From assembly GCA_965247115.1 (NCBI GenBank), contig CBDFGR010000003.1, positions 736,001-800,000 of the forward strand: DNA of 64,000 nucleotides, given 5' to 3'. Position 1 is the first letter of the stretch, and each line of letters begins with the position of its first letter. The DNA comes from Myxococcota bacterium. GTDB taxonomy: Bacteria; Myxococcota_A; UBA9160; SZUA-336. A model generated the notes under the pieces. That model made no database searches. It saw only the letters and a list, made by a program, of their open reading frames with translations, and was not told the origin of the DNA. This document shows, piece by piece, positions 6,772 to 61,925 of the stretch. Both the position numbers and the translations under genes were made by a program.

Positions 6772-6780
6772 CGCCCGTCC

Positions 6781-7662: not shown

Positions 7663-7664
7663 GC

Positions 7665-34374: not shown

Positions 34375-34757
34375 ACCGAGCCCCCACGGGGTCGCCCGAC
34401 ACGAGTCTCGCGGCTGTGCGGCGCCTCCCCGTACTTCCAGCCCTGGACATGGAGCCGCGTAGGCTCGTAGTCCTGGCCGACGTACGTGTGGTACTCAGGC
34501 CGCTCGTGCTCGGTCCGCTCGATCGCCATCTGCCGTCCCTCGGGCGTGTCGAAAACGATATCGATCGCCTCCCCCCACCCGGACCCGAACTGGTGCTTGC
34601 TCTTCTCGTGACCGCCCACAAGGGCGTTCCGCTTCTCGGTGCGGCATCCACCCGTCACCGATCCGCCGTACCAGCAGCAGAGCTGCCAGCACCAGAGGAC
34701 GAACTCGCCTACATCGACCCAATCGATCTGGTGCGGCTCCGAGAGAGGTAGGCTCAT
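34371..34757 (-). CDS. Peptidase M15-like (second endolysin-like protein)
   Basis: R...SKH...AIDI...LHVQ Zn-binding pattern. Confidence 0.6.
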   Translation of the reverse strand: MSLPLSEPHQIDWVDVGEFVLWCWQLCCWYGGSVTGGCRTEKRNALVGGHEKSKHQFGSGWGEAIDIVFDTPEGRQMAIERTEHERPEYHTYVGQDYEPTRLHVQGWKYGEAPHSRETRVGRPRGGSV

Positions 34758-35164
34758 GGCGCCAGCGAACGCATCATCCAGCCCGGCTTCCTCTTGTTGT
34801 GCCGGCAGCGCAGGCCCGCTTCCGGGCCGCAGGTATCGTAGGCGCCGAAGTTTCCGCCCACGAAGACCGCGCGGTGGTAGAGGAACCGGACCCAGCGCCA
34901 GCGCCACGGCAGGGATGTGCGGATGTTCTCCTTGAGCTCCCCATCGGCGTCGTTCTTGCGCTGCCACGTCATCGAGCCGGCCGGGTGACAGCGGGTGCAG
35001 TACCTCCAGTCGTGGATCCGGCAGGCCCAGCGGAAGTCGAAGCCGAAGAGATCGTCTGGTGAGCTCGAACAGCCGTCGTCCTGGAAGTGCTCCGGGATCT
35101 CTGCAAGCGTCCGCTTCGCCTCCTCCGGGATCGGCCGCTGCAGTCGGCCGTCTAGGAGCCCCAT
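34754..35164 (-). CDS. Phospholipase A2-like phage protein
   Basis: DGCSSSPD...ACRIHDWRY...AD motif. Confidence 0.55.
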   Translation of the reverse strand: MGLLDGRLQRPIPEEAKRTLAEIPEHFQDDGCSSSPDDLFGFDFRWACRIHDWRYCTRCHPAGSMTWQRKNDADGELKENIRTSLPWRWRWVRFLYHRAVFVGGNFGAYDTCGPEAGLRCRHNKRKPGWMMRSLAP

Positions 35165-35182
35165 TCCCTTCTCACCCCCCGC

Positions 35183-35461
35183 TCACTCATCGACCTTGAC
35201 GCGGACCGTGATCGGGACCTCGTCCGTTACAGCAGCGGATTTGTCGCTGCATCCGACCCGCGGGACCTCGTCCGCCACGGCAGCGGGTTTGTCGCTGTCG
35301 CTGCATCCGACCCGCAGGGCGTTGCCCATGACCTCGAGCTCGGCCTCGGCGCCGCCTTCAAAGCCGCAGACATCCCACATCACCCAGCCGTGCTCCCCTG
35401 GCCCGATATGCATCGCACAGGCGGGCAGGAGCAGCAGCAACGCGATCATCGCGAGCCCCAT
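35183..35461 (-). CDS. Small lipoprotein (possible spanin-like lysis component)
   Basis: Lipobox LPAC; lies within the lysis cassette; internal tandem duplication. Confidence 0.55.
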   Translation of the reverse strand: MGLAMIALLLLLPACAMHIGPGEHGWVMWDVCGFEGGAEAELEVMGNALRVGCSDSDKPAAVADEVPRVGCSDKSAAVTDEVPITVRVKVDE

Positions 35462-35881
35462 TTATGATCCCTCCGATACGGCCGACTTGTCGTCGAATTC
35501 CAGATGAACGTGACCGACAAGGACGCGCTCTCCCTTACGTTCTCCGGTCCGGATCTCATGCAGGTGCTCTTCGTAGACGACGTCGTACCGGCGCTTGCCG
35601 TGCTTCGCCTCGAGGCGCCCCTGGATCCGGCCAGCCCATGCCGGGCCCTCGATCTCCCACGGCCTAACGATGTTCCACACTCGGATGTCGAAGGCCTGGT
35701 CGTCGTAGTGCCGGCTACCCTTCTTGTGCTTCCCATCGTTCGCGCTCGTGATCACGATGCGGCCGTCGGTCATCACGGGGGCGGTGTCCTGCGCCGCGTG
35801 GAGCATCGCAACCACCTCGGGCTCGAAGTGGCCAGCGTTCAGCTGCACGTCGCCGTTCTTGATCTGGAGCATGGACCGCAT
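35462..35881 (-). CDS. Peptidase M15/Hedgehog-fold endolysin
   Basis: ITSANDGKH..GSRHY...AFDIR...HVHLEFD; GGAGG RBS. Confidence 0.75.
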   Translation of the reverse strand: MRSMLQIKNGDVQLNAGHFEPEVVAMLHAAQDTAPVMTDGRIVITSANDGKHKKGSRHYDDQAFDIRVWNIVRPWEIEGPAWAGRIQGRLEAKHGKRRYDVVYEEHLHEIRTGERKGERVLVGHVHLEFDDKSAVSEGS

Positions 35882-38749: not shown

Positions 38750-40015
38750 TCAGGGTCCTCCGATCCCGAACAGCCGAATGCGTCCCGAGCTCATGTTGCC
38801 CGAGCTCATCAGGATCCGGATGTCCGTGATCTGGGACCCGCTGCTCTGATTACCGCCAAAGAGCGAAGTCTGCGAGGTGTTGCCCGCCGCGTCCTGCACA
38901 CCCGTCCCGATGATCCCGAAGCACGGTCCTCCTGACGCCATCCCGTATATCTGGAACTTACAGTTCCAGCCCTCGCCCGTAGCCGTGCCCACTCCCTCAT
39001 TCACCGTACTGCCATTGAGGGCAATTGCGGTGGCACTGTTAAGCTGTCGAGTACCCAACCCGAATTCGTTGTGGTTCAGGCACCGCCAACTATACGTAGT
39101 GGTCGTGAGAAAATTGCTGCCACCATCAGTACTGACACGTACCCACACGAACGTATCATCAGTAGCCGGTACAAGATCCTCGATGAAGACCTCATAGGCA
39201 CCGTACCCCTGGTCGATGTCGAAGTCCGCAGTAGCCGTGCTGCTCAGAGCGGTGTTAACGAGTTGCTCGCCCTGAGTCATCTTGATCATCTCGTCCAGGC
39301 TGAGCGTGCCCAACGTGATGCGATCGGCTGTGATGGTTCGGGAGGCTATATCTCCCGCAACGATGGTCGCTGCCGCAATCTGAGTTGTGGTGATCGTTCC
39401 AGCGACGAGCTTTCCACCTGTGATCGTCGCGCTGGCGATGTTGGCGGCCTGAATCGTGTTCGCCGCGATTTGCGTGGTGGTGATCGTCGCGGCCGCGATC
39501 TCTGTGGCAGTGATCGTATTCGCTGCGATCTTGGCGGCGGTAATCGTGTTGGCGGCGATCTCGCCAGCGGTGATCGTGAGGGCCGCGATCTCGGCCGCCG
39601 TGACCGCATTCGCCTGGATCTTGGGCGTGGAGATCGAGTCATCGGCGATCTTCGTCTCGTCGATGATCGGGATGTCCGGGAGCTCGAGAATCGCTGTCGA
39701 GTGCGTGAGCTCGGAGCTGACGTTCAGCAGCGCCGGGGTCTCGGTGAAGTCGTCGTAGGCGGCGACCTTCAGGTAGTAGGTCGTCCCCGGCTCGACATCG
39801 ATGATCGCCGGCTTCGCGTTCCCCCGGTAGACGAGAGTCGTCTCGTCGGTGGCAAAGCCCGGGCTCTTGCTCATCCAGACCAGGATCCCGGCCCAGTCCG
39901 CGTCCACGGGTGTCGCGTAGCGGAGGAAGAGCGTCTCGAACGTCGAGGTGATCTGGACGTTGCTGAGCGCCCGCGGTGCCGGGTTCTGCACCGTCAGGAG
40001 CGTGAACTCGCTCAT
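38750..40015 (-). CDS. Tail tip/fibre protein with FN3-like domain and 10-aa ITAxxIAAxT repeats (possibly the C-terminal part of gpJ)
   Basis: YYLKVAAYDDF; about 10 decapeptide repeats; ATGA overlap with the upstream gene. Confidence 0.75.
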   Translation of the reverse strand: MSEFTLLTVQNPAPRALSNVQITSTFETLFLRYATPVDADWAGILVWMSKSPGFATDETTLVYRGNAKPAIIDVEPGTTYYLKVAAYDDFTETPALLNVSSELTHSTAILELPDIPIIDETKIADDSISTPKIQANAVTAAEIAALTITAGEIAANTITAAKIAANTITATEIAAATITTTQIAANTIQAANIASATITGGKLVAGTITTTQIAAATIVAGDIASRTITADRITLGTLSLDEMIKMTQGEQLVNTALSSTATADFDIDQGYGAYEVFIEDLVPATDDTFVWVRVSTDGGSNFLTTTTYSWRCLNHNEFGLGTRQLNSATAIALNGSTVNEGVGTATGEGWNCKFQIYGMASGGPCFGIIGTGVQDAAGNTSQTSLFGGNQSSGSQITDIRILMSSGNMSSGRIRLFGIGGP

Positions 40016-43000
40016 CCCAAGGCGCCGCGATGTCGATAGCCGACCTGGATCTGGAACTGGCGCAGGATCGTCTTGCCCCGACGCGCAGCGTCCGCTCGCT
40101 GCTTCTCGATCGTGTAGGTGTACTCGGGGTTCCGAACGCTGTCCTCGCGAACGATCTCGTCCGCGCCGGCCAGGTCGACGATCCGGACCAGGTAGGAACT
40201 CCGGGAGTCGAACGGGAGGTCGTCGCCGCCAGGCTGGGCGATCGGGTCAGGGATTCCGTCCGGGGCGTTGAGACGCCACGTGAAGTGCGCGTCCCGCCCC
40301 TCGAAGTCCGTATCGTTCCCTTGCCCCAGGAGCTGCAGGCCCGTCACCTTGAACGTGGGAGTGGGGACTTCCGCGCTATTGAACGAAACCTCCGTCTTCG
40401 TCACGAAGGCAGAGAAGACACCGCCTGGCGAGAGCGAGCGAGCGCGCACGTCGTAGCGGGATCCATCGACCAATGGTCCGATGCGCACGTGGTCCGCAGT
40501 CCCTGGTAAGAGCGGTTCGACCGTCCACTCGCCAGGCAATTCCGGCGGGATCGGGTGCTCACGCCACTGGATCTGCACGTGAGCCGCTTCGATGCCGGTC
40601 TTGGAGGTCGGGATCGAGATCTCCACGAGAAGTCGGTCTCCCGCCACTACAGCGTTGCCAAGCGTCGGGACCGGAGGGGCATCAAACTTGTCGTGGCTGA
40701 TCTGCGACTCGAGCTCCGGGATGGGGCCGGTATCCGAGTCGTAGACAGCCTCGGCGTAGGGGATCAGCACAAGCTTCGCGCGAACTCCGTCGAGCGGCTC
40801 GATGCGCTTGAGGAGCATCGGAAAGGTCCCGATCACGGTCTCCACGACGTAGACCTGGTCCCCGACGACGGGCTGGTCCTCTGTGTTGGGAATCGGTGTG
40901 GAGAAGGTGACGAGCGTCCCCGGGGTCGCCGGGTTCGTGATGCCCTGGAGCGCCGTTGCCCCGGGAGGGCTCGAGGCCGAGAGTTGGAGTCGTGCCGAAT
41001 AGGTCTTCGCCGCCTCGTACTGGATCTCCTCATCGAGCACGACCGACACGACGTCCGTCCCCGAGGTGTTCACGGTCTGGATCCGGCCGTAGCCGACGCC
41101 CACCTTCATGACGTCGTCCACGAGCTCGACACGGTCGCCGACCTGGGCAGTGAGGTATTCCCAGTCCATTTCCCGCTCGACGCGTTCCGAGCGGAGCCGG
41201 CCCTGAGCGATGTGAAAGCGGCCGTGGCGCCAGAGACGGGCCGGGTTGGTCTGTCCCGGCACGCGGATGACCTCGAATTTGGAGGCGACGGTCGTGCCGC
41301 CGGCGCCATCCTCCGAGAAGCCGTCGTCGTACACGACGAGCTCGTCCGGCTCGTACTCCTTCTCCTCGTTCAGGAACGGTAGCTTGACGGCATGGGGCAG
41401 GTCCACGAAGTCCCGCTGGCCTCCCGTCCCGGCTGTGTTCCGGGGAGACACGTGCATCGAGGCGACGGGCTTCTTCTCGTCGATCGCGACGGAGTACTTC
41501 CCGTCGATCTGCGTGAAGAACCCTCGGCCCGCCGACATGATCTGGCGCAGCGACTCGATCCGCCGGCGCTCGACGTCGTGCACGGCGTCGTAGCGCCAGT
41601 TTTCGGCCTCACAGAAGGCCGCCCAGGACTGGAGCTTCGTGAGATCGACCCGCGAGAGAGGCACAGGGCGGGAGTTCGAGGAGCCACGCAGGACCTCGAG
41701 CGCCGCCCAGGCGGGGTTCCCGCCGAACTCGACGAGCGGAGCCGTGATGCCCTCCGCATCCGCGGTCGGGTGGGTGGGGTCGTAGGCGGGCAGCATCGCG
41801 CGCGCGAGGCAGTTAAAACTCTCGATCGTTCCCGAGAGCTGGTCGGTCGCCTTGATGCGCAGCGCGATCTTCGCGAGCCCGTCGAGCTTGATCGGGTCCT
41901 CGCTGCGGATCGAGCGCAGCACGACCCAGATCGCCTCGTCGTTCTCCACCCCAGAGGCCACGGCGGAGAAGGTCGAGCGGACCCGGACGTCGTACTGCCC
42001 CGAGGCCACGTCCCACGTGAACCCGATCGAGAAGGGCGTGTCTGTCTGTCGGACGATCTCCCAGGTGTCATGGATCGCGAGGCCCCCGATGCGGGGCGAG
42101 CCCTGCCCCGCCGGGATGCGCTGGACGCCTGCGGGCGTGCCCTTGATCGAGGACACGTCCTCCCAGGGATCCCCGCTCCCGGTGAGCCGAAACTGCAGCT
42201 CGAACCAGCGCCAGCCGAAGCCGACGGTCCCCCGGTTGTTCCTGCGGCTGAGACCCCGCAAAAAACGGACGTCGACCCCGATCTGGTCCACTGCGATGTC
42301 CGTGGTGCGCGTGTGCCAAGGCCCGCCGATCGCCGCCTGCACGCCGAGCGTCGTCTGGTTGTCCTGGAGCTTGACTCCGACGCCCTCCTCCTCGATCTGG
42401 GACGAGTAGAGCGTGATGGGCGGCGCGCCGGGGAAGCCCTGCCGCACCTCGGTCTCGACGTCGTCGTAGTCGCTGAGCGCGGTCTTCCCGATCCGGAACT
42501 GGTCTTCCGGCAGCTCGAGCGGGCCGAAGCCGGGAACGAACAGCAGCCGGAGGTAGTGGTCGTCGCCGACCACCTCCGTCACCGGGTTCAGGAACCACGG
42601 CTTGATCCGATTCGTGCCGAAGTGGCTCCAGATTGGGCCGCGGTTCGCGAGTTGATTCTTCGCACCTGAGAGTGTCGGGCTACCGCGTTGATCGGTCCCG
42701 TCGCCACCATCGTCTGGGCGTGAGAGGGCGTTGGTGATGAGCTGCGTAGTGAGAGTAAGCGCACCAGCGATGGCTACGTCGACAACGGCCCCCGTGATCG
42801 CTGCGGCGGTTCCACCTTGAGAGAATCCGAAGAGGTTGACCAGGAATGCTGTGATCGGTTCCGAGGCCGGCTGCGCGATGACGCCAACGAGGGATCCTGG
42901 TGCGGGCTTCAGCTCCTCAGCTCCTGGGAGAATCGGAAGATCGTCGATGGCGAATCGCAGCTGACTCGGTGGCACAGTGCCGAAGCCCACATGCTGCGCG

Positions 43001-43119
43001 ATCTCGCGCAGGCTCAGTCCCGGTTCAAGATCGAAAAATGCGCGCTGGGAGGTGAGCGGATGCTCGACCGCTACGACTCTGACCGTATCCGGATGTACTC
43101 GTGGATCATCGGTTCCCAC
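40012..43119 (-). CDS. Host-specificity/central tail tip protein (gpJ-like)
   Basis: ALRIKATDQLSG, NPAW, FN3-like C-terminus; follows NlpC/P60. Confidence 0.88.
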   Translation of the reverse strand: MGTDDPRVHPDTVRVVAVEHPLTSQRAFFDLEPGLSLREIAQHVGFGTVPPSQLRFAIDDLPILPGAEELKPAPGSLVGVIAQPASEPITAFLVNLFGFSQGGTAAAITGAVVDVAIAGALTLTTQLITNALSRPDDGGDGTDQRGSPTLSGAKNQLANRGPIWSHFGTNRIKPWFLNPVTEVVGDDHYLRLLFVPGFGPLELPEDQFRIGKTALSDYDDVETEVRQGFPGAPPITLYSSQIEEEGVGVKLQDNQTTLGVQAAIGGPWHTRTTDIAVDQIGVDVRFLRGLSRRNNRGTVGFGWRWFELQFRLTGSGDPWEDVSSIKGTPAGVQRIPAGQGSPRIGGLAIHDTWEIVRQTDTPFSIGFTWDVASGQYDVRVRSTFSAVASGVENDEAIWVVLRSIRSEDPIKLDGLAKIALRIKATDQLSGTIESFNCLARAMLPAYDPTHPTADAEGITAPLVEFGGNPAWAALEVLRGSSNSRPVPLSRVDLTKLQSWAAFCEAENWRYDAVHDVERRRIESLRQIMSAGRGFFTQIDGKYSVAIDEKKPVASMHVSPRNTAGTGGQRDFVDLPHAVKLPFLNEEKEYEPDELVVYDDGFSEDGAGGTTVASKFEVIRVPGQTNPARLWRHGRFHIAQGRLRSERVEREMDWEYLTAQVGDRVELVDDVMKVGVGYGRIQTVNTSGTDVVSVVLDEEIQYEAAKTYSARLQLSASSPPGATALQGITNPATPGTLVTFSTPIPNTEDQPVVGDQVYVVETVIGTFPMLLKRIEPLDGVRAKLVLIPYAEAVYDSDTGPIPELESQISHDKFDAPPVPTLGNAVVAGDRLLVEISIPTSKTGIEAAHVQIQWREHPIPPELPGEWTVEPLLPGTADHVRIGPLVDGSRYDVRARSLSPGGVFSAFVTKTEVSFNSAEVPTPTFKVTGLQLLGQGNDTDFEGRDAHFTWRLNAPDGIPDPIAQPGGDDLPFDSRSSYLVRIVDLAGADEIVREDSVRNPEYTYTIEKQRADAARRGKTILRQFQIQVGYRHRGALG

Positions 43120-43466
43120 AGACGCGTCCTATACGGCTCGAGCACGGAGCCCGCGGCCTTTCTGGAGTGCAGCATCAGATTCTCTGCCACGACCAGGCCC
43201 AGGTGAGAGATCCAGCCGTGGGCCTTGAAGGTGACGAGATCACAGAGATCCGGGATGTCGACTATCTCGTAGGCCTGAGCCTTGTTCGAGATCAGATCGT
43301 GCAGCGCGGAGCGATCGTCGATGTTGTAGTCGAAGCTTGGAAGGCGGACGCCGAGCTGATCCCCGACGACCAGACGCACGAGCTGCCAGCAATCGGCCGT
43401 TTCAAACGGGATCCCGACGTACTGGCTCACCCATTCGGGCGGATGCCGGGACGGGACCACACTCAA
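43071..43466 (-). CDS. NlpC/P60 tail assembly protein
   Basis: YVGIPF..DCWQLV...HLGL...MLHS. Confidence 0.85.
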   Translation of the reverse strand: MSVVPSRHPPEWVSQYVGIPFETADCWQLVRLVVGDQLGVRLPSFDYNIDDRSALHDLISNKAQAYEIVDIPDLCDLVTFKAHGWISHLGLVVAENLMLHSRKAAGSVLEPYRTRLWEPMIHEYIRIRSES

Positions 43467-43930
43467 AACGCTCCCGGCGTGGTCTTGGGATCAAATCGGT
43501 AGCCGGGATAGGCGTCGTTCAAGAAGTCATCCACGAGGAGGTCGACCTCGACGCCGAGCTCCGAGTACCGCGCCTGGCCCCACTGGAAAAGAAAAGGGCC
43601 GTGCTGGACCGTCGTCGGGTCCGAGATCGAGACGAAGTCGATCTGGGTCGTAGGCGCAGAGGAAGTGCTGCGGATCGCGTCGATCAGATCTCGCAGGACA
43701 TTGTCGACCACGAGCGTGCCGCGTGGCTCCCCCTCGGAGAAGTCGGCAGGCAGCGTGATGGCGACGTTGCGCGCAATCCATGTCTCGCCACCGGGTCCGA
43801 CCACGTCCTCGGTGTTGTCCACCAGCCGCACCGGCTCTGGGAGCTCGTCGTGTGTGATCGTGACGAGGGTCAGGATTCCCTCCGTGGAGCGCGGCTTCAG
43901 CGTCTCCCGGGTGAACGCGTCGGTGGGCAT
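43463..43930 (-). CDS. DUF1833-like minor tail protein
   Basis: LVTITHDELPEPVRLVDNTED...FDPKTTPGAF; synteny. Confidence 0.8.
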   Translation of the reverse strand: MPTDAFTRETLKPRSTEGILTLVTITHDELPEPVRLVDNTEDVVGPGGETWIARNVAITLPADFSEGEPRGTLVVDNVLRDLIDAIRSTSSAPTTQIDFVSISDPTTVQHGPFLFQWGQARYSELGVEVDLLVDDFLNDAYPGYRFDPKTTPGAF

Positions 43931-43932
43931 CG

Positions 43933-44298
43933 CTATGCCGGCAGCCTGACGACAGCGAACTCGATGTTGACGTTGTCGGCCTCGAAGTGGAGCTTGTTGG
44001 TGGTCTGCCTCCAGCCAGAGGTCTTGTAGGGTCCGAAGATCCGGATGCCCGGGCGTCCCCCTACCGCAGCGGGCACAGAGGCGGTGGCATCGCGCGTACG
44101 GTGCAGCGAGTCCGGGATCGACGTGATCGTCACGTTGTGCGCGCCGCCCGTATCGACATTCTGGGCGATGATCATCTCGGTTCCGGTGAGCGCCGTCTCC
44201 TCCTTGTTCGTGACATCGGCCGCGACAAAGGGGAGATTCTTGCCTGTATAGTCGACATTCCCGACTGCAACGACGGCAATGTGATTCTGGCGCAGCAT
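43933..44298 (-). CDS. Hypothetical virion protein, paralog of 47868-48218
   Basis: Full-length similarity to the 47868 protein. Confidence 0.65.
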   Translation of the reverse strand: MLRQNHIAVVAVGNVDYTGKNLPFVAADVTNKEETALTGTEMIIAQNVDTGGAHNVTITSIPDSLHRTRDATASVPAAVGGRPGIRIFGPYKTSGWRQTTNKLHFEADNVNIEFAVVRLPA

Positions 44299-44311
44299 TG
44301 CATGCCCCCCG

Positions 44312-44671
44312 TTACGGCAGGATCAGGAGCGACATGACGCTCTGCCAGATCGGCCCATTGCTGTCTACACCGATGGACGTCCACTCAGACGGAGCCAGGA
44401 AAGCAAACGACACTGTCGTGCCATCGATGGGATCCTTCCAATCGAAGGAGTCAGAGCCCTCTTTCAGCGTCGTGATGTAGAACGTCTTGAAGGTCGACCT
44501 CTGCGCGTTCGTGAGCTTGATCAGCACGCCGGTCGGTTCCGAAGCAACTGTCGCCCGCCGCCTGGTCTTGAATGGTCCCACGGAGACGGGGGAACGCAGA
44601 ACCGCGTCAACCCGCGAGTGTCGGACTCCGACGAATATGTCCTGAGGAAGCGTCGCCGGCCAGGTGGGCAT
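44312..44671 (-). CDS. Distal/minor tail protein
   Basis: WPATLPQ...GPFKTRRR...FY..TLKEGS..FDWKDP; follows tape measure. Confidence 0.75.
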   Translation of the reverse strand: MPTWPATLPQDIFVGVRHSRVDAVLRSPVSVGPFKTRRRATVASEPTGVLIKLTNAQRSTFKTFYITTLKEGSDSFDWKDPIDGTTVSFAFLAPSEWTSIGVDSNGPIWQSVMSLLILP

Positions 44672-46699
44672 TCACCGTCTCGTGGCGCGTCGCGGTACGT
44701 CGAAAGTCTGCTCCATTGTCTGGCCCAGCCGGCCTGTCTGCATGCTCCGTGAAGCGACGCTCTCGATCACGATCTCGATGTCGCGGTCGAAGGCGGACTG
44801 TCGCTCTCGGGCGGACTGCACGTCGACGGGCTGGCCGTTATTGATGACCGTCACATTGAGTCCCCTGCCGCCGCCGCCCGCGAACATGGAGAGCGGAATC
44901 ACAGCTTCCGGCCCACGCTCCCCGATCATCGCAAACGTAGGGCGACGCACAACGCCACCCTCTGCGAGGCCCAAGATCTTGCCCAACGCCCCCACTAGGC
45001 CGCCCGTGCCAGTTCCTCCAGCTCCTCCAGTTGCGGTAGCACCGCTAGAGCCCGCCGCGACGCCGGCCTGGATAAGCCGCTGCGTCGTGATTTGCTTCTC
45101 GATGGCTAGGAGCTCCTTCCGCGTCTGGATCTCGTCCTTGAAGAACTTCCCAAGGGTCCGCTCGATGATGAGCTCCGCTGACTTGGCAGCGATCAGCTGC
45201 AAGACGTTCTGCAGGAGTAGCTGTCCCGCCTCGCCGGCTTCCAAGCTCCCAGACAGAAGACCTTGGAGAGGGCCCTGCACGATGCCCTCGAGGTCGCTTC
45301 GCATCGTTTCGTACTGTTCGATCTGGGTTTCGAGCTCGTCCCTGATGAGCCGATCCGTCTCCGCCTGCCACTCCTTCTCAAGGGTGATCTGTCGCGCCTG
45401 CTCCAGCTGGCCGACGGTTGCGGCTCTCGCGCGTTCGATCTCCGCGGCGCTCTTGCCAGCAGCCTCACCCCACTTCTCGAGCTCCTCGGTGGTCTGCTGG
45501 ACTTTGAATTCGAACTCCCCGATCTCGAGCTTGCGGAGTTCGTCGGCAACCCGCTGGATCGTCGCCTCGAAGCGCTGGGCCGCCTTCTCCTGTTCCTTGC
45601 GGGCACGCCCGAAGGCTTGGATCTCTTTCTCGCTCAGTCCGAGGCCTGCGCTCTCCGGGGCTTCCACCGCCGCGCCCTCGCGCGCACCGAGCCTGCCGCG
45701 AAGATCGTGGAGCTTCCGCTGCGCCTCAAGCTCCTTATTGATCCGATCCTGGACCTCGGCCTTCTGGAAAATCCCGCCGAAGATCCCCACCTCGATCGGC
45801 GGCAGATCCCGCAGTCGCTCGAGCTCGGCCTCGGTCTCGGCGATCTGACGCTTGAGTGCGCTCGTACCGAGAGAATCGAGGTCGCGCATCCCTTCGATCC
45901 AGCGACCAACGGCGACCGCTGCCTCGATCGCGCTTTCAGCCCAGTCGCGGATGGTGTCAGCATTCTCCGCGATCGCGATCGAGGTCTGTATCTGTAGGAC
46001 CTGAGACAGATCGGACAGCTGGTCCTTCGCCTCGACCAGACCGTCGACCATATCCTGAGTCATCACGGCCCCGAGGTCCTGCGCCCGCTGGCGCATCCGA
46101 TTCAGCTCGTCCGAGCCGTTTTGCAGGACCTGGATCAGCCGCACGCCCTCGGAGTCGAAGAGCTTGAAGGCGAGGCGCACGCGTTGCGTCGGATCCTCGA
46201 CCTGGGAGAGCGCGTCTGCGACCTTGCCGAGAGCGTCCTCGGCCGAGAGATTCGATGCGACCAGGTCCTCTCCGAGAATGGCCTCGAGCTCTTTCAGGGC
46301 AAAGAGCGCCTCACCAGTGCCCCGACGGGCTTCGCCCAGACGACGCGTGAAACGCTGCATGCCCATGTCGAACGTGCGGATATCCACACCCGCACGCTGG
46401 GCGGCAAAGCGAAGCTCCTGGAGCGCCTCGACATTGATCCCGAGTCGCTTCGAGGCTTTGTCGATCGAGTCCGCGAGCTCAAACGCGCGCTTCGTAGCGA
46501 CAGCGAAGCCCGCACCTATGACGGCAGCGCCGGCGGCGATGACGCTGGCCGGTATGGCGGCTTTCCCGAGAGCCCTCCCGATCCGAGACATCCGGCCCTT
46601 CGCCCCGTCCAGCTCTCGCTCCACGAGCCGCAGCTGTCGCGTGAAGGGCTTCTTGTCGAGGCCCAGGACCGCGACCATGCTACCGACCGGGGTTGGCAT
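44672..46699 (-). CDS. Tail tape measure protein
   Basis: Long helical Ala/Glu-rich ORF, LQELRFAA repeats, GERGPEAVIPL. Confidence 0.9.
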   Translation of the reverse strand: MPTPVGSMVAVLGLDKKPFTRQLRLVERELDGAKGRMSRIGRALGKAAIPASVIAAGAAVIGAGFAVATKRAFELADSIDKASKRLGINVEALQELRFAAQRAGVDIRTFDMGMQRFTRRLGEARRGTGEALFALKELEAILGEDLVASNLSAEDALGKVADALSQVEDPTQRVRLAFKLFDSEGVRLIQVLQNGSDELNRMRQRAQDLGAVMTQDMVDGLVEAKDQLSDLSQVLQIQTSIAIAENADTIRDWAESAIEAAVAVGRWIEGMRDLDSLGTSALKRQIAETEAELERLRDLPPIEVGIFGGIFQKAEVQDRINKELEAQRKLHDLRGRLGAREGAAVEAPESAGLGLSEKEIQAFGRARKEQEKAAQRFEATIQRVADELRKLEIGEFEFKVQQTTEELEKWGEAAGKSAAEIERARAATVGQLEQARQITLEKEWQAETDRLIRDELETQIEQYETMRSDLEGIVQGPLQGLLSGSLEAGEAGQLLLQNVLQLIAAKSAELIIERTLGKFFKDEIQTRKELLAIEKQITTQRLIQAGVAAGSSGATATGGAGGTGTGGLVGALGKILGLAEGGVVRRPTFAMIGERGPEAVIPLSMFAGGGGRGLNVTVINNGQPVDVQSARERQSAFDRDIEIVIESVASRSMQTGRLGQTMEQTFDVPRRATRR

Positions 46700-48911: not shown

Positions 48912-49532
48912 TCACTTTCGCGCGCGTAGTTTCTGTATCTCCCGCGTCACCTTTTTTGGGAGCTCCCGGCGCGCTGTCCGGAACGCCACCTTGAAGAACT
49001 CGAGCCGCGGCTGGAGCCTTGCGCGATCGACCAGCGCGTACAGGACACTGATCGATGAGGTTCGGCCGACCCGCTGTAGGATGACCGTCCCCCTCCGGTT
49101 GACGAAGCCTCGCCCACCCGGTTTGACGACCTCGGCGGGATGCAACCGCTTCGGCACCCGCCCGCGCTTCCCGCGCTTGACGGAGATCGGAATCGCGAGC
49201 TTGCTCCCGAACGCCAGATGATCGCCGTCGAGCGCGCTGATCGTGGAGCCGCGTTGGTGATCCTCGAGGATCTCGCCCGTCTTCTTCCTGGGGAAGAGCC
49301 TCACCTCTAGGCGACGAGGCGAGGCGCCTCGAAAGGCGAAGCCACGGTCCGCAAGGAAGGCGCGCGTGCTGGGTCCGGAGAATCGGAAGACACGCCTCAC
49401 GTGAGCCGCTTCCGCATCCCGCATCTCGAAGGCCGTCTTGTTGAGAGCGCCGGCGAGGACGCGGGGCAGATCTCGCTTGTCGAGCTCGCGCAGCGTCTTC
49501 TCGAGCGAGCGCGTATCAAGCTCGAGGCTCAC
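48912..49532 (-). CDS. Neck/tail completion protein (gpZ-like)
   Basis: Basic protein, ALNKTA motif, position. Confidence 0.6.
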   Translation of the reverse strand: MSLELDTRSLEKTLRELDKRDLPRVLAGALNKTAFEMRDAEAAHVRRVFRFSGPSTRAFLADRGFAFRGASPRRLEVRLFPRKKTGEILEDHQRGSTISALDGDHLAFGSKLAIPISVKRGKRGRVPKRLHPAEVVKPGGRGFVNRRGTVILQRVGRTSSISVLYALVDRARLQPRLEFFKVAFRTARRELPKKVTREIQKLRARK

Positions 49533-54643: not shown

Positions 54644-56599
54644 CTACCGGCGATCGAGGAAGCTGCTCGTGCTCTTGCGCCGCGTGCGCTTTCGATTCGG
54701 TCTAGGTGGGGTTGGCGCCGCGGCTGCTGGCACCTCGGCGTCGATCTCCACACCGAGGGCCTCGACTCGAGTCGCTTCCTTCTCGAGATCGAATCCCATC
54801 GTCTTCAGGCCCTCGAGCGCGGCCATCGCGTAGACCGAGAGGTCCAACGCTTCGTTGCGGCGGCCCGCGCTCTTCAGCTCCCAGGTGCGCGTCGGGAACC
54901 CAGACTTGTCCGTCCCAGGAACCGCCTTTTCTGCCGTGAGCTGCTGGAAGTACGCCTCGCCGAAGGCCTTCGGAAAGTGAATGTAGCCCGGGCCCGGCCG
55001 CTCGACTTTCTCCAGTCGCGCGTAGATCGCGTCTTTCGCGAGATCGACCTTCAGGGTATAGACCGGGATCTTGGCCTTGTTCTTGATGCTAGGAGCAATC
55101 GGCCAGAGATTCTTCCCGGGCCCGCCACTCCCCCGGATCGCAAACACGTACGCGCGCCGCCCGTCCGGTGTCGCGATGCGGTGCCGGGGACGGCAGAACT
55201 CGTACGCCCGCAACGTGTGATGTCCGCCCGTATCGACGCATGTGGCGCGAACGTAATCGACACCTCCGCGCTCGAGGCGCCTCGGCCGCGAGAGGAATTC
55301 CCAGAGATCATCCCAGACTTCGCCGCCCGAAGGATCGCCGTGCAAGACGTAATGCTCGAGCTTCCAGTTCTCCTCACCGCGTCCCCACGCTTCGACCTGC
55401 GCCTCGAGTCGATCGTCTTGCGTGTCGACGCTCGCCGTCATCACCACCGCGCCGCGCGGAACCACAGGGCGTCCTTCTCGCTCGGGGTAGGCCTCGCGGC
55501 GCGCGGCGATGTTCTCATCGTCGAGCGAGTCATACTTCGCTTCCCATGTCTCCCCGAGATCGGTGTTCACGAAGACCTGGAACTTGACCGGATCCTCTTT
55601 CGATCGGAGGAACCGCTTCGCGATTTTGCCCCACGCGGCATCCGGCGCCGGCGAGTACGCGGCCCAGATGTGGAAGCCCGCGTGTCCCTCGAAGGGCTTC
55701 TCCGCACGCCACTCTCCCTGTGCAACCATCGCCTCCTTCTCGGAATGCTCGATCTGCTCGTGGCAGTTCTCGCAGAGGTAGAAGGCCTCCTCGGGCGATC
55801 GACCATCCCATTTGATCCCGTAGTCGACGTCAGGGCCGCCCCACCGTAGCCGCTGTCCGTGATCACAATACGGGCACGGCACGAAGAAGTAACGCTGATC
55901 CGAGAACTCGAATGCAGTCTCCACCCGCGAGACCCCCGCGATCTTCGGCGAGCTTCCGATGATGTGCTTGTAGTCCCACGCCCAGGTCGTGCGCTTCTTC
56001 CCGAGCTCGATGGGATCGCCCTCACCACCCGCAGAGAGCGGGTAGGCGTCGACCTCATCAAACAGAACGATCCGCTTCGTGAGGCGCCGGAAGCCCCGAC
56101 CGCTATTCGCACCGACCATCGAGAGCACAGCACCACCAATGAAGTGCTTCTTCAGAATCGTGTTGCTCGAGTCCCGACTGCGCGGCGCCGCAATCAGCTC
56201 CTCGAGGACCTCGACGTCCCGGAGCATCGGCGCGAGCTCGTCCTTGCTGTATCCCTCGGCGTCCTCCACCGTCGGCTGCACGACCAGGATTCCGCACGGA
56301 TCATGCTGCGCGTAGTAGCCGATCGCGCAGTTCAGGATCTTCGTGTACCCAACCCTCGTCGACTTCTGGACCGTGACCTCTCGAACGTCCGGATCGGAGA
56401 TCGCGTCCATGATGCCTTTCTGGTAGGCAAGCGTTCTCCAGGTCCCCGCCTCGGCACTCGATTCGGCGGAGAGGATGTAGTTCTCGTCCGCCCACTCGCT
56501 GAGTGTCAGCTTCGGCGGCGGGGCAAAGCTCTGAAACGCTTCCCAGGCTGCGAGCTCAATCCCCTCGAGACGTGGGAACTCAAGCGCCGGTGAAGACAT
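54644..56599 (-). CDS. Terminase large subunit (GpA family)
   Basis: SEWAD, KSTRVGYT, FDEVDAY, VPCPYC, F.NT.LGE.W, RNEALD. Confidence 0.96.
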   Translation of the reverse strand: MSSPALEFPRLEGIELAAWEAFQSFAPPPKLTLSEWADENYILSAESSAEAGTWRTLAYQKGIMDAISDPDVREVTVQKSTRVGYTKILNCAIGYYAQHDPCGILVVQPTVEDAEGYSKDELAPMLRDVEVLEELIAAPRSRDSSNTILKKHFIGGAVLSMVGANSGRGFRRLTKRIVLFDEVDAYPLSAGGEGDPIELGKKRTTWAWDYKHIIGSSPKIAGVSRVETAFEFSDQRYFFVPCPYCDHGQRLRWGGPDVDYGIKWDGRSPEEAFYLCENCHEQIEHSEKEAMVAQGEWRAEKPFEGHAGFHIWAAYSPAPDAAWGKIAKRFLRSKEDPVKFQVFVNTDLGETWEAKYDSLDDENIAARREAYPEREGRPVVPRGAVVMTASVDTQDDRLEAQVEAWGRGEENWKLEHYVLHGDPSGGEVWDDLWEFLSRPRRLERGGVDYVRATCVDTGGHHTLRAYEFCRPRHRIATPDGRRAYVFAIRGSGGPGKNLWPIAPSIKNKAKIPVYTLKVDLAKDAIYARLEKVERPGPGYIHFPKAFGEAYFQQLTAEKAVPGTDKSGFPTRTWELKSAGRRNEALDLSVYAMAALEGLKTMGFDLEKEATRVEALGVEIDAEVPAAAAPTPPRPNRKRTRRKSTSSFLDRR

Positions 56600-57044
56600 C
56601 TCTCGCGAGCTCGGAGAGTGCCTCATCCACGATCGCGAGCATCGCCCTCTCGTCTCCCTGATTCAGCTTTCTCACGCGACGCCGCAGTTTCGATGGGAGC
56701 GCCCGCAGGCGATCCTTGCAGCGAAGAATCAGCTCCTGCCACCTCGCGACGACATCCTCATGTTGTAGGAGATGACCGCGTGTCTCCGCGTTCTTCAGGT
56801 CCTGCGCTTCCGCCTGGACCCGGGCTAGCTTCGCCCGCTCTCTGGATAGTTCGTCGGCGCCCTGTTCGGCGGGCTGGAAGATCAGCGGCAAGGCCTTCCG
56901 CGGGTCGTAGTAGATCGCCCGCTTCTCGCGCCTCACCGGCTCGATCTCGTGGAGCCGCTTGCGGACCGTTCGATGCGACGAGCCCGTGAGAAGAACCAGC
57001 TGCCCCATGGTCATCGCTGAGAGGCTGACCTCTGACCTCGCCAT
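56580..57044 (-). CDS. Terminase small subunit (Nu1-like)
   Basis: N-terminal HTH, ERAKLARVQAE...LKNA..RG.L; upstream of GpA. Confidence 0.85.
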   Translation of the reverse strand: MARSEVSLSAMTMGQLVLLTGSSHRTVRKRLHEIEPVRREKRAIYYDPRKALPLIFQPAEQGADELSRERAKLARVQAEAQDLKNAETRGHLLQHEDVVARWQELILRCKDRLRALPSKLRRRVRKLNQGDERAMLAIVDEALSELARDVFTGA

Positions 57045-57103: not shown

Positions 57104-57145
57104 CGCCTCGCGTTACCCGCGAGCGAGGACCGCTGGAGAGGACCC
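57104..57145 (-). other. Putative cos region (cosQ-like GGGTCCT and cosN-like 12-mer)
   Basis: GGGTCCT at 57139-57145, then CG-GGTAACGCGAGG-CG (12-mer at 57106-57117), just upstream of the small terminase. Confidence 0.55.
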
Positions 57146-57357: not shown

Positions 57358-57825
57358 TTACGCCTCCGGAGGCCACACCCAGGCGCCCTGGTCAAGCTCC
57401 TCATCCCCGTCCTGAGCGCGCTGGGAGTAGCGCGCTCGCACGAATCCAGAGTGGTCCCTGCCAGCGCCGAGCCATACCCGCGGGGCGGTGAAGGCTACGA
57501 TCCCAACGACCCCATCCACGGAATCGTAGACCTGGACGATGATTCCGGGAATCGCTTCGTCGCAACCGGATGGACGGCACTGGACGATGCGACCGATCGC
57601 GAGGCCCGGCATCGGGCCCAAAGGCTCTTCCTCCACGAGCCGCGCATTTGCATCGATCGCGCCCTTCGCGAGGAGGATCAGGCCAGCCGCTGAAGTTTCT
57701 GCATAGCCGTGAGCTTCAGAGATCTGCTCGGCTGTCGCGCCTGCGACCGCCTCGAGGGCCTCGAAGCCAATCTCCTTCAGAGCCGCCAGCTGATTTTCGG
57801 TGACCAAATCACTGAGCTGCTGCAC
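57358..57825 (-). CDS. HhH (NusA-AR/RadA-N-like) domain fused to a phage 'IGRIV...WxWPP' domain
   Basis: LAALKEIGFEALEAVAGATAEQISEAHGYAETSAAGLILLAK; GGAG RBS and GTG start. Confidence 0.6.
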   Translation of the reverse strand: MQQLSDLVTENQLAALKEIGFEALEAVAGATAEQISEAHGYAETSAAGLILLAKGAIDANARLVEEEPLGPMPGLAIGRIVQCRPSGCDEAIPGIIVQVYDSVDGVVGIVAFTAPRVWLGAGRDHSGFVRARYSQRAQDGDEELDQGAWVWPPEA

Positions 57826-57844
57826 GTTTCTTCACTCCCCTCTT

Positions 57845-58115
57845 CGACACTCCCGCACCCAGACCCGCGCGCACTCTACGAGCGGACCTCCGGCATCGAG
57901 CGTTGCAGTGACTTTTACGTCGTACGTACCCTTTGGGGCCGTACTCTTGATGCGAACTTCGCAGTCGTGGTCGTGAAGCCCGTTCCACCGAGTACGGTCG
58001 CGGAGACATCAAGACCGAAATGCCGAACTCTCCCCACAGGGCGGGCTACGGGTGTCGTGCTACGGCGACTTCTCTCCGACCGGGTCGCGGGGTGCCGTAC
58101 CGACACCACTGCGAC
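57845..58115 (-). ncRNA. Candidate large structured ncRNA in the late-operon leader
   Basis: About ten mutually compatible helices found by hand; mismatches read as G-U on the minus strand; begins about 10 nt after a promoter. Confidence 0.7.
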
Positions 58116-58124
58116 GATGAGAGA

Positions 58125-58152
58125 ATCGTGCCAAAAGTGTCGCAGACGTCAA
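58125..58152 (-). promoter_or_regulatory. Putative late promoter (pR'-like)
   Basis: -35 TTGACG (58147-58152), 16-bp spacer, extended -10 TG-G-CACGAT (58125-58130). Confidence 0.55.
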
Positions 58153-58203
58153 GGGGGGCGTATGCGCGAGAGGCGCGGAGAGGCCGCCTCGTTCTACGTG
58201 AAC

Positions 58204-58240
58204 GTGACTCCGATCTACTCGCGTCTACTCGGATCTACTC
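58204..58240. repeat. 10-bp-period direct repeats TCTACTC
   Basis: TCTACTC at 58214, 58224, 58234; degenerate in-phase GTGACTC at 58204. Confidence 0.85.
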
Positions 58241-58442
58241 AGTCGAGGAATCCGCATCGTGTACATCTCGAATCGGGTTCGAGATCACCAACTCGGATGC
58301 GGTAGATCGGCCGCTTGCCAGGCGGAGCTTCGTTCCTCGCTCGAAGCCGCTTCGACTTGATCCAGCGGTAGACCGTGTGTCGGTGTAGGCGCAGTCGCTG
58401 CGCCACCTCTTCGGGTGTCAGCAGTTCGTCGGGATCAGACAT
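58239..58442 (-). CDS. HTH_17 (Xis/BldC-like) small DNA-binding protein
   Basis: ELLTPEEVAQRLRLHRHTVYRWIKSKRLRA. Confidence 0.85.
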   Translation of the reverse strand: MSDPDELLTPEEVAQRLRLHRHTVYRWIKSKRLRARNEAPPGKRPIYRIRVGDLEPDSRCTRCGFLD

Positions 58443-59028
58443 GAATCACCCGCTCTCTCTCCGTTGCTCCGCCCCGATGTCGTAGCAACCCGGCATCGAC
58501 CATCCGCTCTGCGAAGATCGCGCGCCCCTCCGGCACCCAGCGATGCACGCGGTCCTTGTTCCATTCGAACGGCGCGCAGGGCCAAAGTTCCGCCGCGATC
58601 GCGGCGAGCTCGCGCACGCCTGAGCGCCGCGCATCCTCCGAGCACAGCTCGGCCAGGAAGTATGTACGGAACGGCCACCGAAGTCGTCGACTCGAGTAGA
58701 GCTTGCAGATGATCCGGTCGAGTTCGGCCAGCTCTAGCATGGCGATCGCGCGGTCGTGCGCGCGAGAAGCCGCTTGAGCAGCATGACCGCGACCCTTCCA
58801 CCCAAAGGTGCTGTCGACCGGCCAGAGCTCGCCGCAAGCACCGCAGATGGAAGCGTAATCGCTGTCTCGCGCGCGCATGTATCCAGTGTGCCCTTTCGCG
58901 ATGCAGACGGGGCAGAAGCCGCCGAACTGCTGGCCGATCGAGTGCACCGCACCCGCGCCTCCTTGATAGAGACGCTCCGCGCGCTCGGCGTAGTAACGAA
59001 TCGCGTTGTCGGGATGCGAGAATCTCAC
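58435..59028 (-). CDS. Zn-ribbon protein in the gpQ position (possible late regulator)
   Basis: CPVC...CGAC; helical C-terminus; synteny. Confidence 0.5.
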   Translation of the reverse strand: MRFSHPDNAIRYYAERAERLYQGGAGAVHSIGQQFGGFCPVCIAKGHTGYMRARDSDYASICGACGELWPVDSTFGWKGRGHAAQAASRAHDRAIAMLELAELDRIICKLYSSRRLRWPFRTYFLAELCSEDARRSGVRELAAIAAELWPCAPFEWNKDRVHRWVPEGRAIFAERMVDAGLLRHRGGATERERVIHV

Positions 59029-59546: not shown

Positions 59547-59806
59547 GCTGCTCCCTCGTCACTGCCCGGTATCTTCGGCGTCTCCATGATCCCGAACGCC
59601 TGGAGCGTGGTGATGAGATCCGTCTCTGCGGCCTTCGCGCCCTGTGCCGCGCGCTTCTCCTCTTGGACGGTGCCGAAGAGACGCGTAGCAGCAGCCGAGA
59701 CCTTCTGCACTTGCACCTTCAGAGCCGCGTTTTCCGTCTCGAGCTGCTTGATCCTCTTCTTCAGCTCCTGGTCAGAGCTTCCCTTCTTTCGCGACGCCTC
59801 ACCCAT
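59543..59806 (-). CDS. Hypothetical coiled-coil phage protein
   Basis: Overlapping start/stop with neighbours. Confidence 0.6.
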   Translation of the reverse strand: MGEASRKKGSSDQELKKRIKQLETENAALKVQVQKVSAAATRLFGTVQEEKRAAQGAKAAETDLITTLQAFGIMETPKIPGSDEGAA

Positions 59807-59993
59807 CAGCGTCGCCCGTCTCGGTGACCGTCACGTCGACGCTCGTTCCGATCTTCAGCTTGGCGATAGTGGCGACGACCAGCTGACACACGTGGCCGCT
59901 CGAGTTTCGCAGCGAGACCCGCCACTTCAGGCCGCCCCCTTCGAGGCTCTGCGCAATCTCGGAGACCTGGAAAGCTTCCCTGAACACCTCCAT
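59799..59993 (-). CDS. Hypothetical phage protein
   Basis: Coupled ORF in the early/middle operon. Confidence 0.55.
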   Translation of the reverse strand: MEVFREAFQVSEIAQSLEGGGLKWRVSLRNSSGHVCQLVVATIAKLKIGTSVDVTVTETGDADG

Positions 59994-60728
59994 CTACTCA
60001 TCTCCTTTCCGTTTGGGGATTACACACGATAGGCCCAAGCTCGAACAACGCGCACGCGCCGATCCAGAGGGTGAGGAGGAACAGCGAAGCGAAGACTCCA
60101 GGTAACGCTCCCCCCCAGTCAGCGTGAAGCCCCGGAGAGTTCCTCTTCGCTGCCCTCCTCACGAGACTCATAACGCATGATCCGGACCGTTCGTGTCGGT
60201 CCGATCGTGAATGCCGATCACATCGGCGCCGCGGTTGTCGCTCTTCGAGTCCACGAAGGCCTCGAGGTTGTCGCACAGGCGCTCGAGGGCGTTGACCAGA
60301 GGGATCGCGATCTTGCCGATTTGATTGACGATCGCCAGCACGACGACCGTGGTGCACAGCATGATCACTCCGAGGATGATCACAGCTTGACCCTCCAGCG
60401 GAGATCTCCGCTGCCCTCCACGCGTACGATGAGCTGCTCTCGTGGATGCTGGAAGAGGCCGAGCTGGTCCACGGCTACAGCAGCTCCTGGATCTCGGCAA
60501 GGTCCCGGCGACCCTTTGCGAGAAGCTGCTCACACCGGCCCAGCAGACGCTCCAAGCGAGAGACGGCCGCCTCGCACGGTCGAGGCTCCCTCTGATGCTC
60601 CTTCCAGGACCTCTGGCAGCTCATGCACCACATGGTCTCTCCAAAGCTGTGTCCGTTCGCCAGGAAGTCCCCCTTCCGTTTCCGCACATCTCGCGCGTGC
60701 TTCACAGCCCTACCCCCTCCCGTGTCCA

Positions 60729-61187
60729 TCAATGCACCGCTCGCTCGGCATCCGGCCGGAGATCCTTCGACAGCACCTCGACCCTCTCGGCACAATGGAT
60801 GCCGTAGAGCACCGAGTACACGCGCAGCCGGTCCAGATCTGCCCTGCCGTTGCCCTTGTTCTTGAAGTAGCCGCCGTTCTGGCCAACGGAGGGGAACTCG
60901 ACGAAATGGTGGACGTGATCCGGCATCCGGACTCCTAGACCAGCTCCAGCTGGTTGTTCCGCCAGCGCGCCTTGAAGATCACGGGCTCTTCCGGAACGCG
61001 GGTCCGCGCGCTGAATGTGGATCTCCGGATCCTCGTCCTCGCGTCCGGGCTTCACTGCAATCGTGATGGAGCAGAACGCTTGCCGTTGGTGCCGCCGCGC
61101 CGCGGTCTCCAATTGCGCGAAGTGCTTGAACACGATCTGCTGAACCTTCGTTCCCATCTTCTCGAGTCGTCCGGCCGTCGCGGCCAT
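60729..61187 (-). CDS. Hypothetical phage protein (N-terminus paralogous to 61740-61925)
   Basis: MAATAGRLEKMGTKVQQIVFKH. Confidence 0.5.
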   Translation of the reverse strand: MAATAGRLEKMGTKVQQIVFKHFAQLETAARRHQRQAFCSITIAVKPGREDEDPEIHIQRADPRSGRARDLQGALAEQPAGAGLGVRMPDHVHHFVEFPSVGQNGGYFKNKGNGRADLDRLRVYSVLYGIHCAERVEVLSKDLRPDAERAVH

Positions 61188-61205
61188 CGTCGGTGTGCTG
61201 CGCCC

Positions 61206-61517
61206 TCATGACTCGTCCTCCTCCTCGAGCTTCGCGCCCTGGAACAGCGCGAGCTGCCGCCCGATGTGGTGGAGCTTGATTTCTACGTCGTCGATCGGCT
61301 TCGTCTCAAGTTGGATCGACACCTTTGGGAACTTGATCGTTACGCCAAGCTCACCCGTGTCCGGGTCCGTCTTGAAGATGCATTTGGGCTTGAACTCGGC
61401 GACGGCCTTGCCGCCCTTGATCGAGTCCGAGATCAACGGAAGCTCGGGCAGGAGCTTCGTGTAGATCTCCCCCGAGATCCTTACCGCGAGCTCCTCATGG
61501 TGTTTCTGTTGCGCCAC
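61206..61517 (-). CDS. Hypothetical phage protein
   Basis: AGGAGGAG RBS, 103-aa ORF. Confidence 0.65.
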   Translation of the reverse strand: MAQQKHHEELAVRISGEIYTKLLPELPLISDSIKGGKAVAEFKPKCIFKTDPDTGELGVTIKFPKVSIQLETKPIDDVEIKLHHIGRQLALFQGAKLEEEDES

Positions 61518-61739
61518 TGCGCTCCTCCTTCTGTACCGAGCGGATCGCCCGCTCGATGGCTTCCTCGTACTCGCGCTGAGCCAGCCCGCGCGCGAGCTTG
61601 CTTCGACAACCGATCAGGTTCTGTCGCGTGCGGTACACCTCGGACGCGACCATCATCGGGACCTGGTCCAAGTGCACATCGCACATGACGACGGTGGGAC
61701 TCGGTGGTACTCGGTGGCGACCCGCTACGCGACACACGC

Positions 61740-61925
61740 TCATAGCAGCCTCGGCTGGTGCGGATCGCTGGCTCGAGCTTCGTGGATTCGCTGCCGTCGT
61801 CGTTCCGTGAAGACGTGCTCTCCCAAGCGTGCGCCTTCGGCCTCGAGCTGTGGAACGTGCTTGAACACGATCTGCTCCACCTTCATTCCCACCTCCGCCA
61901 GTCGTTCGGCCGTCGTGGCCATCAT
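61740..61925 (-). CDS. Hypothetical phage protein
   Basis: MMATTAERLAEVGMKVEQIVFKH; GAGG RBS. Confidence 0.5.
   Translation of the reverse strand: MMATTAERLAEVGMKVEQIVFKHVPQLEAEGARLGEHVFTERRRQRIHEARASDPHQPRLL

Follow-up and report, generated by a model that had tools for sequence, protein, structure and literature searches.

To our knowledge, most lambda-like prophages outside enterobacteria and Firmicutes lack a recognisable late regulator. Here we analyse the late-control interval (57358..59028) of a lambda-type prophage, encoded on the minus strand within a 64,000-nucleotide stretch of a Myxococcota genome (contig CBDFGR010000003.1; the whole stretch is called the window below), and compare it with the systems that it most resembles. 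In the Caulobacter gene transfer agent (GTA), GafY binds at -123..-113 and contacts sigma-70, and GafZ binds between the -35 and -10 elements and antiterminates, the untranslated region (UTR) being 229 nt long (PMC11150451). GafY and GafZ match halves of Rhodobacter GafA (PMC11150451, PMC9638019), whose N-terminal helix-turn-helix (HTH) is described in the latter as DnaA-like. In its proposed working, the cassette at our locus comes closest to this pair; by sequence it belongs to none of the families tested. As with GafY and GafZ, two adjacent genes are homologous to halves of one protein elsewhere, one partner has a sigma-like HTH, a putative small DNA binder has its site upstream of the promoter (at about -122..-89 here), the UTR is of comparable length (293 nt here) and a head-tail cluster is driven. 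The differences are that no DUF6456 match is found here, that the small HTH is BldC/Xis-like rather than DnaA-like, that the GafZ model is reported to be unlike Q and AlpA, that IHF sites are not enriched at our cassettes, and that here the genes act in cis on a whole prophage.

The cassette consists of two proteins and their DNA sites, and it is real and class-wide. Its first gene (58435..59028, minus strand) encodes a 197-aa protein with an N-terminal helix, a Zn ribbon of the form CxxC..CxxC (C39, C42, C62, C65) and a sigma-4-like interrupted HTH; the second (58239..58442, minus), overlapping the first by 8 nt, encodes a 67-aa BldC/Xis-like HTH protein. Direct repeats of GAGTAGA (three copies and a partial one, 10-bp period; 58207..58240, minus) begin in the stop codon of the HTH gene, and a late promoter is predicted at 58125..58152 (minus), with -35 TTGACG at 58152-58147, a 16-nt spacer, -10 CACGAT at 58130-58125 and, judged from sequence, a start at 58118. 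The preliminary description of this DNA had placed the locus at the position of lambda Q, before the terminase, and this is borne out, as are the presence of the Zn-ribbon ORF, the HTH ORF and the phased repeats where it put them, the co-oriented late gene run of about 24 kb (57825 to 34371) and its statement that no gpQ is recognisable, since profile searches gave no Q family match. Its promoter is also the top mechanical pick at that site, although a strict promoter scan missed it, with none found.

What is shown is a recurring pair of overlapping genes with repeats, and a resemblance of folds; beyond this we infer a two-step control, to which we give slightly less than an even chance: the 197-aa protein would be a Q21/AlpA-type antiterminator, and the 67-aa HTH, seated on the upstream repeats, would control initiation. 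Both proteins would be made from the replication-side transcript via translational coupling, and the HTH would oligomerise head to tail on the repeats, bending the DNA and so stimulating initiation at a promoter whose -35 is good but whose -10 is weak. RNA polymerase would then pause at a -10-like hexamer (CATCGT, at -1..+5), where the 197-aa protein, bound to the promoter spacer via its interrupted HTH, would load on the paused enzyme and escort it across the leader and the roughly 24 kb of virion genes; its Zn ribbon would lie where AlpA and Q21 have the exit-channel ring. The cassette is not described in the literature searched, which held few subscription papers and no supplements (these may contain GafZ alignments). 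It now makes up a family that has a name, can be tested and has its cis elements located to single-base precision. If control does work in two steps, the combination of activator and antiterminator, until now shown for a GTA, would run whole prophages as well, and the Q21/AlpA scaffold would accommodate a Zn ribbon in the segment at the RNA channel.

We sought terL in 225 genomes of the class and obtained 14 matches in 11 genomes, the window among them; the DNA upstream of the other 13 was read. A Zn-ribbon gene with a small HTH was found at eight of these (L025, L026, L027, L028, L031, L032, L033, plus L029 as one ORF), and not at the other five (L024, L030, L034, L036 and L035, the last being a stretch of only 2.3 kb). 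The HTH label in relatives comes from alignment A2, from the PDB matches of A2 and, for L027, from phrog_66. The co-inheritance check proposed in the preliminary description thus shows Zn-ribbon gene, HTH, repeats and promoter inherited together, in keeping with its view that the control unit holds more than one gene. To avoid circularity, a check profile was built from 20 of 23 hits, all 20 metagenomic; the window's own protein, that of L025 and a repeat hit of 1568 aa were set aside. The profile gave 128 bits for the window and 21.7-156 for seven relatives, whereas among 26,585 host ORFs the highest unrelated score was 16. With 12.2 bits L029 falls below this, and its assignment comes from hhalign (86.7%), with the HTH half matching weakly. 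At this locus (L029:4652-7700) the two genes are probably fused, and about 1.8 kb with a transposase-like gene precede the repeats and promoter; in L027 (7972-8985) the HTH frame is open across the promoter into a neck gene.

A class-wide profile search gave 16 Zn-protein matches in 14 of the 225 genomes; four of these matches (L043-L046) are satellite-like loci with no HTH after the Zn gene, lying beside an integrase or converging on capsid genes. A 401-genome sample of the phylum added one weak ribbon-only match; three profile matches (L048-L050) are weak and ribbon-only. Viral contig scans for terL and for the helix-hairpin-helix (HhH) gene discussed below gave no further cassettes, a metagenome search with alignment A4 gave 37 stretches and none confirmed, motif scans gave three viral and 38 metagenome stretches and no relatives, and word-indexed homolog searches led to nothing beyond the query proteins and class loci found before. 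Window positions 59562-61848 are 98.6% identical to the second prophage of the host (L025) and the resolvase-to-terS block is not: the cassette is exchanged as a unit. When Zn, HTH and TerL distances were compared by Mantel tests, no correlation reached significance (r 0.02, -0.12 and 0.32), which tells little since the majority of the distances are saturated. PHROGs identify the gene that follows the promoter as a neck/minor-tail gene in six relatives, and resemblance does so in L032; in L026 a tRNA-Met is inserted, and L025 has no long ORF there. In the window this neck/minor-tail gene, which opens the late operon in seven relatives, lies inside the head-tail block (48912-49532).

The 197-aa protein is likely, as a prediction, to be a Q21/AlpA-like antiterminator, and is probably both sigma-4-like and Q-like. 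With Q21 (PF06530) and AlpA it has in common the genomic slot, a weak end-to-end structural alignment in which the N-terminal helix may be collinear, an apparent ECF (extracytoplasmic function) sigma-4-like fold with interrupted HTH, a -10-like hexamer at -1..+5 and, in four relatives, leader hairpins. It differs from them in the lack of sequence similarity, in having a Zn ribbon in the N-terminal segment, in the extra HTH gene and upstream repeats, and in that the window leader holds no clear terminator. Lambda Q (PF03589) offers a Zn ribbon with a C-terminal HTH, about 200 aa, the same slot and a similar promoter layout; here, however, the ribbon follows the first helix rather than occupying residues 114-152, and hhalign gives 3.7% over 14 columns (0.1% for QuuD). 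None of the 27 members matches the Q families (PF06530, PF03589, PF06323) or the Ltr-family profiles (ArpU, RinA, DUF1492, Sigma70_r4) in Pfam, PHROGs or NCBIfam, and none matches DUF6456 (GafA/GafZ) in Pfam, assuming that the family is in the Pfam copy used and with no direct GafZ alignment made. The Atlas gave a lead only (rank 29, score 0.80, with PF06530 in 22% of members). Foldseek against PDB and BFVD returned nothing at E<=0.001, although the BFVD rows include one phage protein labelled "Sigma70" with prob 0.60 and E 0.13; lambda Q, with its four-helix body plus Zn arm, is not among the matches listed in the structure searches, an absence that excludes nothing. Single-sequence AF2 modelling was dropped (pLDDT 38).

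The "Sigma70" row speaks for Ltr-type activation, in which the sigma-4-like domain of a RinA/ArpU/LtrA-like 197-aa protein binds the repeats and starts initiation, with no antitermination and with the small HTH as a helper or split-off domain. The Ltr activators (RinA, ArpU, LtrA-C) resemble our locus in the order regulator gene, direct repeats at the gene end, promoter and terS, and in that their repeats are phage-specific. The binding sites of Ltr proteins are direct repeats located between the distal end of the ltr gene itself and terS, one Ltr family is sigma70_r4-like (PMC3753634), and known repeats lie at -107..-42 (PMC13123087). The repeats of our cassettes also vary from one to the next, as Ltr repeats do, and the window leader lacks a terminator. 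What makes this reading rather doubtful in our view, beyond the family searches above (no Ltr match in 27 members), is that here there are two proteins, a Zn ribbon and a pause-like element, that the repeats upstream of the late promoter are distal to the HTH gene and not to the sigma-4-like gene, and that three of the four loci with the Zn protein alone have no repeats. The pause-like hexamer and the leader hairpins of relatives would also be unexpected, and the Ltr systems described so far use one protein each and belong to phages of Gram-positive hosts.

On the two-step reading, the repeats belong to the small HTH. This 67-aa protein is a small stand-alone MerR-like winged HTH, an HTH_17 member (E 7e-13, above cut-off), and BldC-DNA structures are its top natural PDB matches (E 3e-9 by profile, 0.007 with the single sequence). 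From sequence it is likely, as a prediction, to bind the upstream repeats: size, best PDB match and 9-10-bp direct repeats beside the gene are as in the BldC family, from which it differs in its phage late context and in that binding is predicted here. The window repeats have 16 of 20 matches at lag 10, a value equalled by 2.0% of 1200 host gene ends. At the 5% level repeats are found in seven of nine cassettes with lags 8-11 and 17-22 (picked after looking), or in six with any lag 7-49, compared with one and none, respectively, of the four loci without an HTH; in L027 and L029 points other than HTH stops served as anchors. Each phage has a repeat sequence of its own, and in the window, L027, L029 and L031 a distance of 60-93 nt separates the repeats from the -35 downstream. 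An IHF consensus site was sought between repeats and promoter; the window has three mismatches, as do 73% of controls, and only L026 is at one.

The effect of the HTH could go either way, since BldC, which binds 9-bp direct repeats head to tail (PMC5859096), and D29 Gp36, which acts from direct repeats like BldC (PMC12266134), both repress. This bears on a second alternative, namely that the 197-aa protein antiterminates unaided and the HTH binds the repeats as a repressor, a timer or an autoregulator, or else has an excision or packaging role. The HTH does match excisionase PHROGs and, by profile, RppC; good -35 elements speak against a need for recruitment; and the Zn protein occurs alone in L043-L046, with TTGACG directly after it in L045. 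On the other hand, its fixed position, the overlap and the probable fusion in L029 tie the HTH to the cassette, and the distance of the repeats from the -35 is far for steric repression, yet BldC represses from -50..-80. Overall, we consider this alternative unlikely.

For antitermination by the two-step reading, the promoter region is informative. The AlpA promoter carries CACGAT at -1..+5 (PMC9371919), and in the window the -10-like CATCGT (58114..58119, minus; predicted -1..+5) is a candidate sigma-dependent pause element, 33 nt from the -35 as against 35 in lambda. At the sequence level, this element lies downstream of the regulator gene, with the HTH gene between. A second -10-like hexamer 32-34 nt past the -35 was picked by consensus in four of nine cassettes (window, L026, L029 and L033, all CAnnnT), by leave-one-out matrices in four (window, L026, L028 and L029) and by eye in seven; in host promoter-like sites it occurs in 7-8%, and CAnnnT in about 3%. 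Four of nine against 8% gives p about 0.004 by hand, for an offset window picked after looking. Terminator-like leader hairpins are seen in L026, L029, L032 and L033; those of L025 and the window are irregular, and L027, L028 and L031 have none, all counted with no control. A stricter scan found no U-tract terminator in the window leader or elsewhere before terS, and four terminator candidates deeper in the window operon.

A further site, not listed in the preliminary description, is a degenerate parS-like palindrome (58190..58205; 3 mismatches in 12 fixed positions). The motif was first noticed in the cassette sequences and then checked against PMC7022226. It lies between the HTH gene and the late -35 in the window, L025, L026, L027 and L031, so that five of nine cassettes have it (at <=3 mismatches) within 120 nt upstream of the -35, compared with 3.0% of host controls (0.5% at <=2); promoter anchors were set by eye in L025, L028 and L032. 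Mismatches number 3 in the window, 3 in L025, 2 in L031 and 1 each in L026 and L027, the window copy being the most degenerate. Of four 1-mismatch parS sites in the host, a pair lies at a distance of 1.2-1.3 kb from parB, and the palindromes of L026 and L027 match parS as well as this pair does. It is conceivable, though in our opinion improbable, that an undescribed family of Q-type antiterminators with a Zn ribbon in the exit-channel segment, a BldC-like activator acting in cis on phased repeats and a parS-like site for gating or positioning of the late promoter by host ParB make up a three-input late switch, a temperate-phage counterpart of the GafY/GafZ logic. Such a site would tie a host segregation protein to late gene control.

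The preliminary description had instead proposed an RNA-based switch, in which the long leader, an HhH protein and the two regulators form a ribonucleoprotein complex for activation or antitermination. On present evidence this basis is wrong, because leaders are variable (20 to 581 nt in relatives), only about 60 nt are common to the window and one relative, and the HhH gene is present in none of eight relatives; we regard such a complex as very improbable. The 293-nt gap called a large RNA is real (57826..58118, minus), but on present evidence it is not a conserved structured RNA: its minimum free energy (z = -0.25) is not unusual and Rfam gave nothing at gathering score or at E<0.8. No covarying structure was found, with two homologous 5' ends only and a patchy two-sequence consensus fold. 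In favour of an RNA role, the first ~60 nt are 73% identical to L025 (z 6.6; flanking genes 54-61%) and contain the pause-like hexamer, the base of a 5' hairpin (GTCGC/GCGAC) and a 13-nt motif, hairpin and motif (58071..58115, minus) being common only to that prophage; the L025 leader folds strongly (z -4.4), and a put-like 5' hairpin is conceivable. Beyond these ~60 nt, however, z falls to 0.9, the 13-nt motif occurs in no other of the 225 class genomes and in no viral contig, with four coding-looking chance matches in species genomes, and a DNA search of 40 relatives with the leader gave no match. We read the leader as a 5' UTR in which nothing but the first hairpin might be important; some short element near the 5' end may act, and a large ribonucleoprotein scaffold is unsupported.

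The HhH gene is bracketed by a 17-nt inverted pair (58016-58000/57357-57341), which we do not accept as a stem, since 10 of 150 shuffles equal it and its pairing probability is 0.06. A putative leader pseudoknot found by eye competes with the minimum-free-energy helices and was set aside. In L025, three CATGACG copies face three complements in a long leader hairpin (oriented 8885-9000; G000:C3 about 2602000-2602120), and upstream 10-bp repeats occur in both orientations. The first late gene of the window does exist as a 155-aa ORF (57358..57825, minus), but there is little to back the name HhH, as HHH_5 matches below cut-off (E 0.069) and the Rad51 N-domain at E 0.06; the C-terminus has a weak phrog_2293 match. 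It is found in one of the 225 class genomes, the window's own, the Atlas gave no usable match, and the gene is likely a passenger. Neither the long RNA nor the HhH gene recurs with the cassette in the relatives, and both are likely passengers. The preliminary description had named an ordinary, self-sufficient Q or sigma-type activator with independently assorting parts as the opposite of its own proposal; the large protein is indeed sigma-4-like and probably Q-like, and two parts do assort independently, while HTH and repeats travel with it.

As for the setting, replication genes and a resolvase (59546-59229) lie upstream of the cassette, and terS (Nu1-like; 56580..57044, minus), with which the lambda-type morphogenesis genes start, terL (56626-54644, minus), portal, head and tail genes follow downstream to about 34371. 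An integrase-like ORF was seen by inspection outside the window (C3:808137-809351). A GGGTCC..GCGGGTAACGCG motif (57109..57145, minus) before terS, also present in relatives, is presumed to mark the cos region from position and conservation only. Between it and the HhH gene lies a 46-codon ORF (57328-57188) with a good ribosome-binding site and no family matches, and in L026 a pentapeptide-repeat-like gene on the opposite strand separates the cos-like motif from terS (oriented 6560-7950). Contigs from a single sample, which may be the source of this DNA, match the sequence with zero differences and show no joint or inversion. Two more terL loci lie elsewhere in the host genome; the third terS/terL pair (L024, G000:C3:1024000-1036000) is near-identical to that of the second prophage, with unrelated genes before it, no Zn/HTH cassette and a short portal-like remnant after terL, and is possibly a satellite with a captured terminase. 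In the replication region, a 71-nt direct repeat (61118-61188 and 61853-61923, 86% identical) lies at the starts of two related small genes. At the tail end, 90-96% identical copies of about 34400-35800 and 39700-44900 occur at several other places in the genome, which suggests further prophage remnants or shuffled tail modules.
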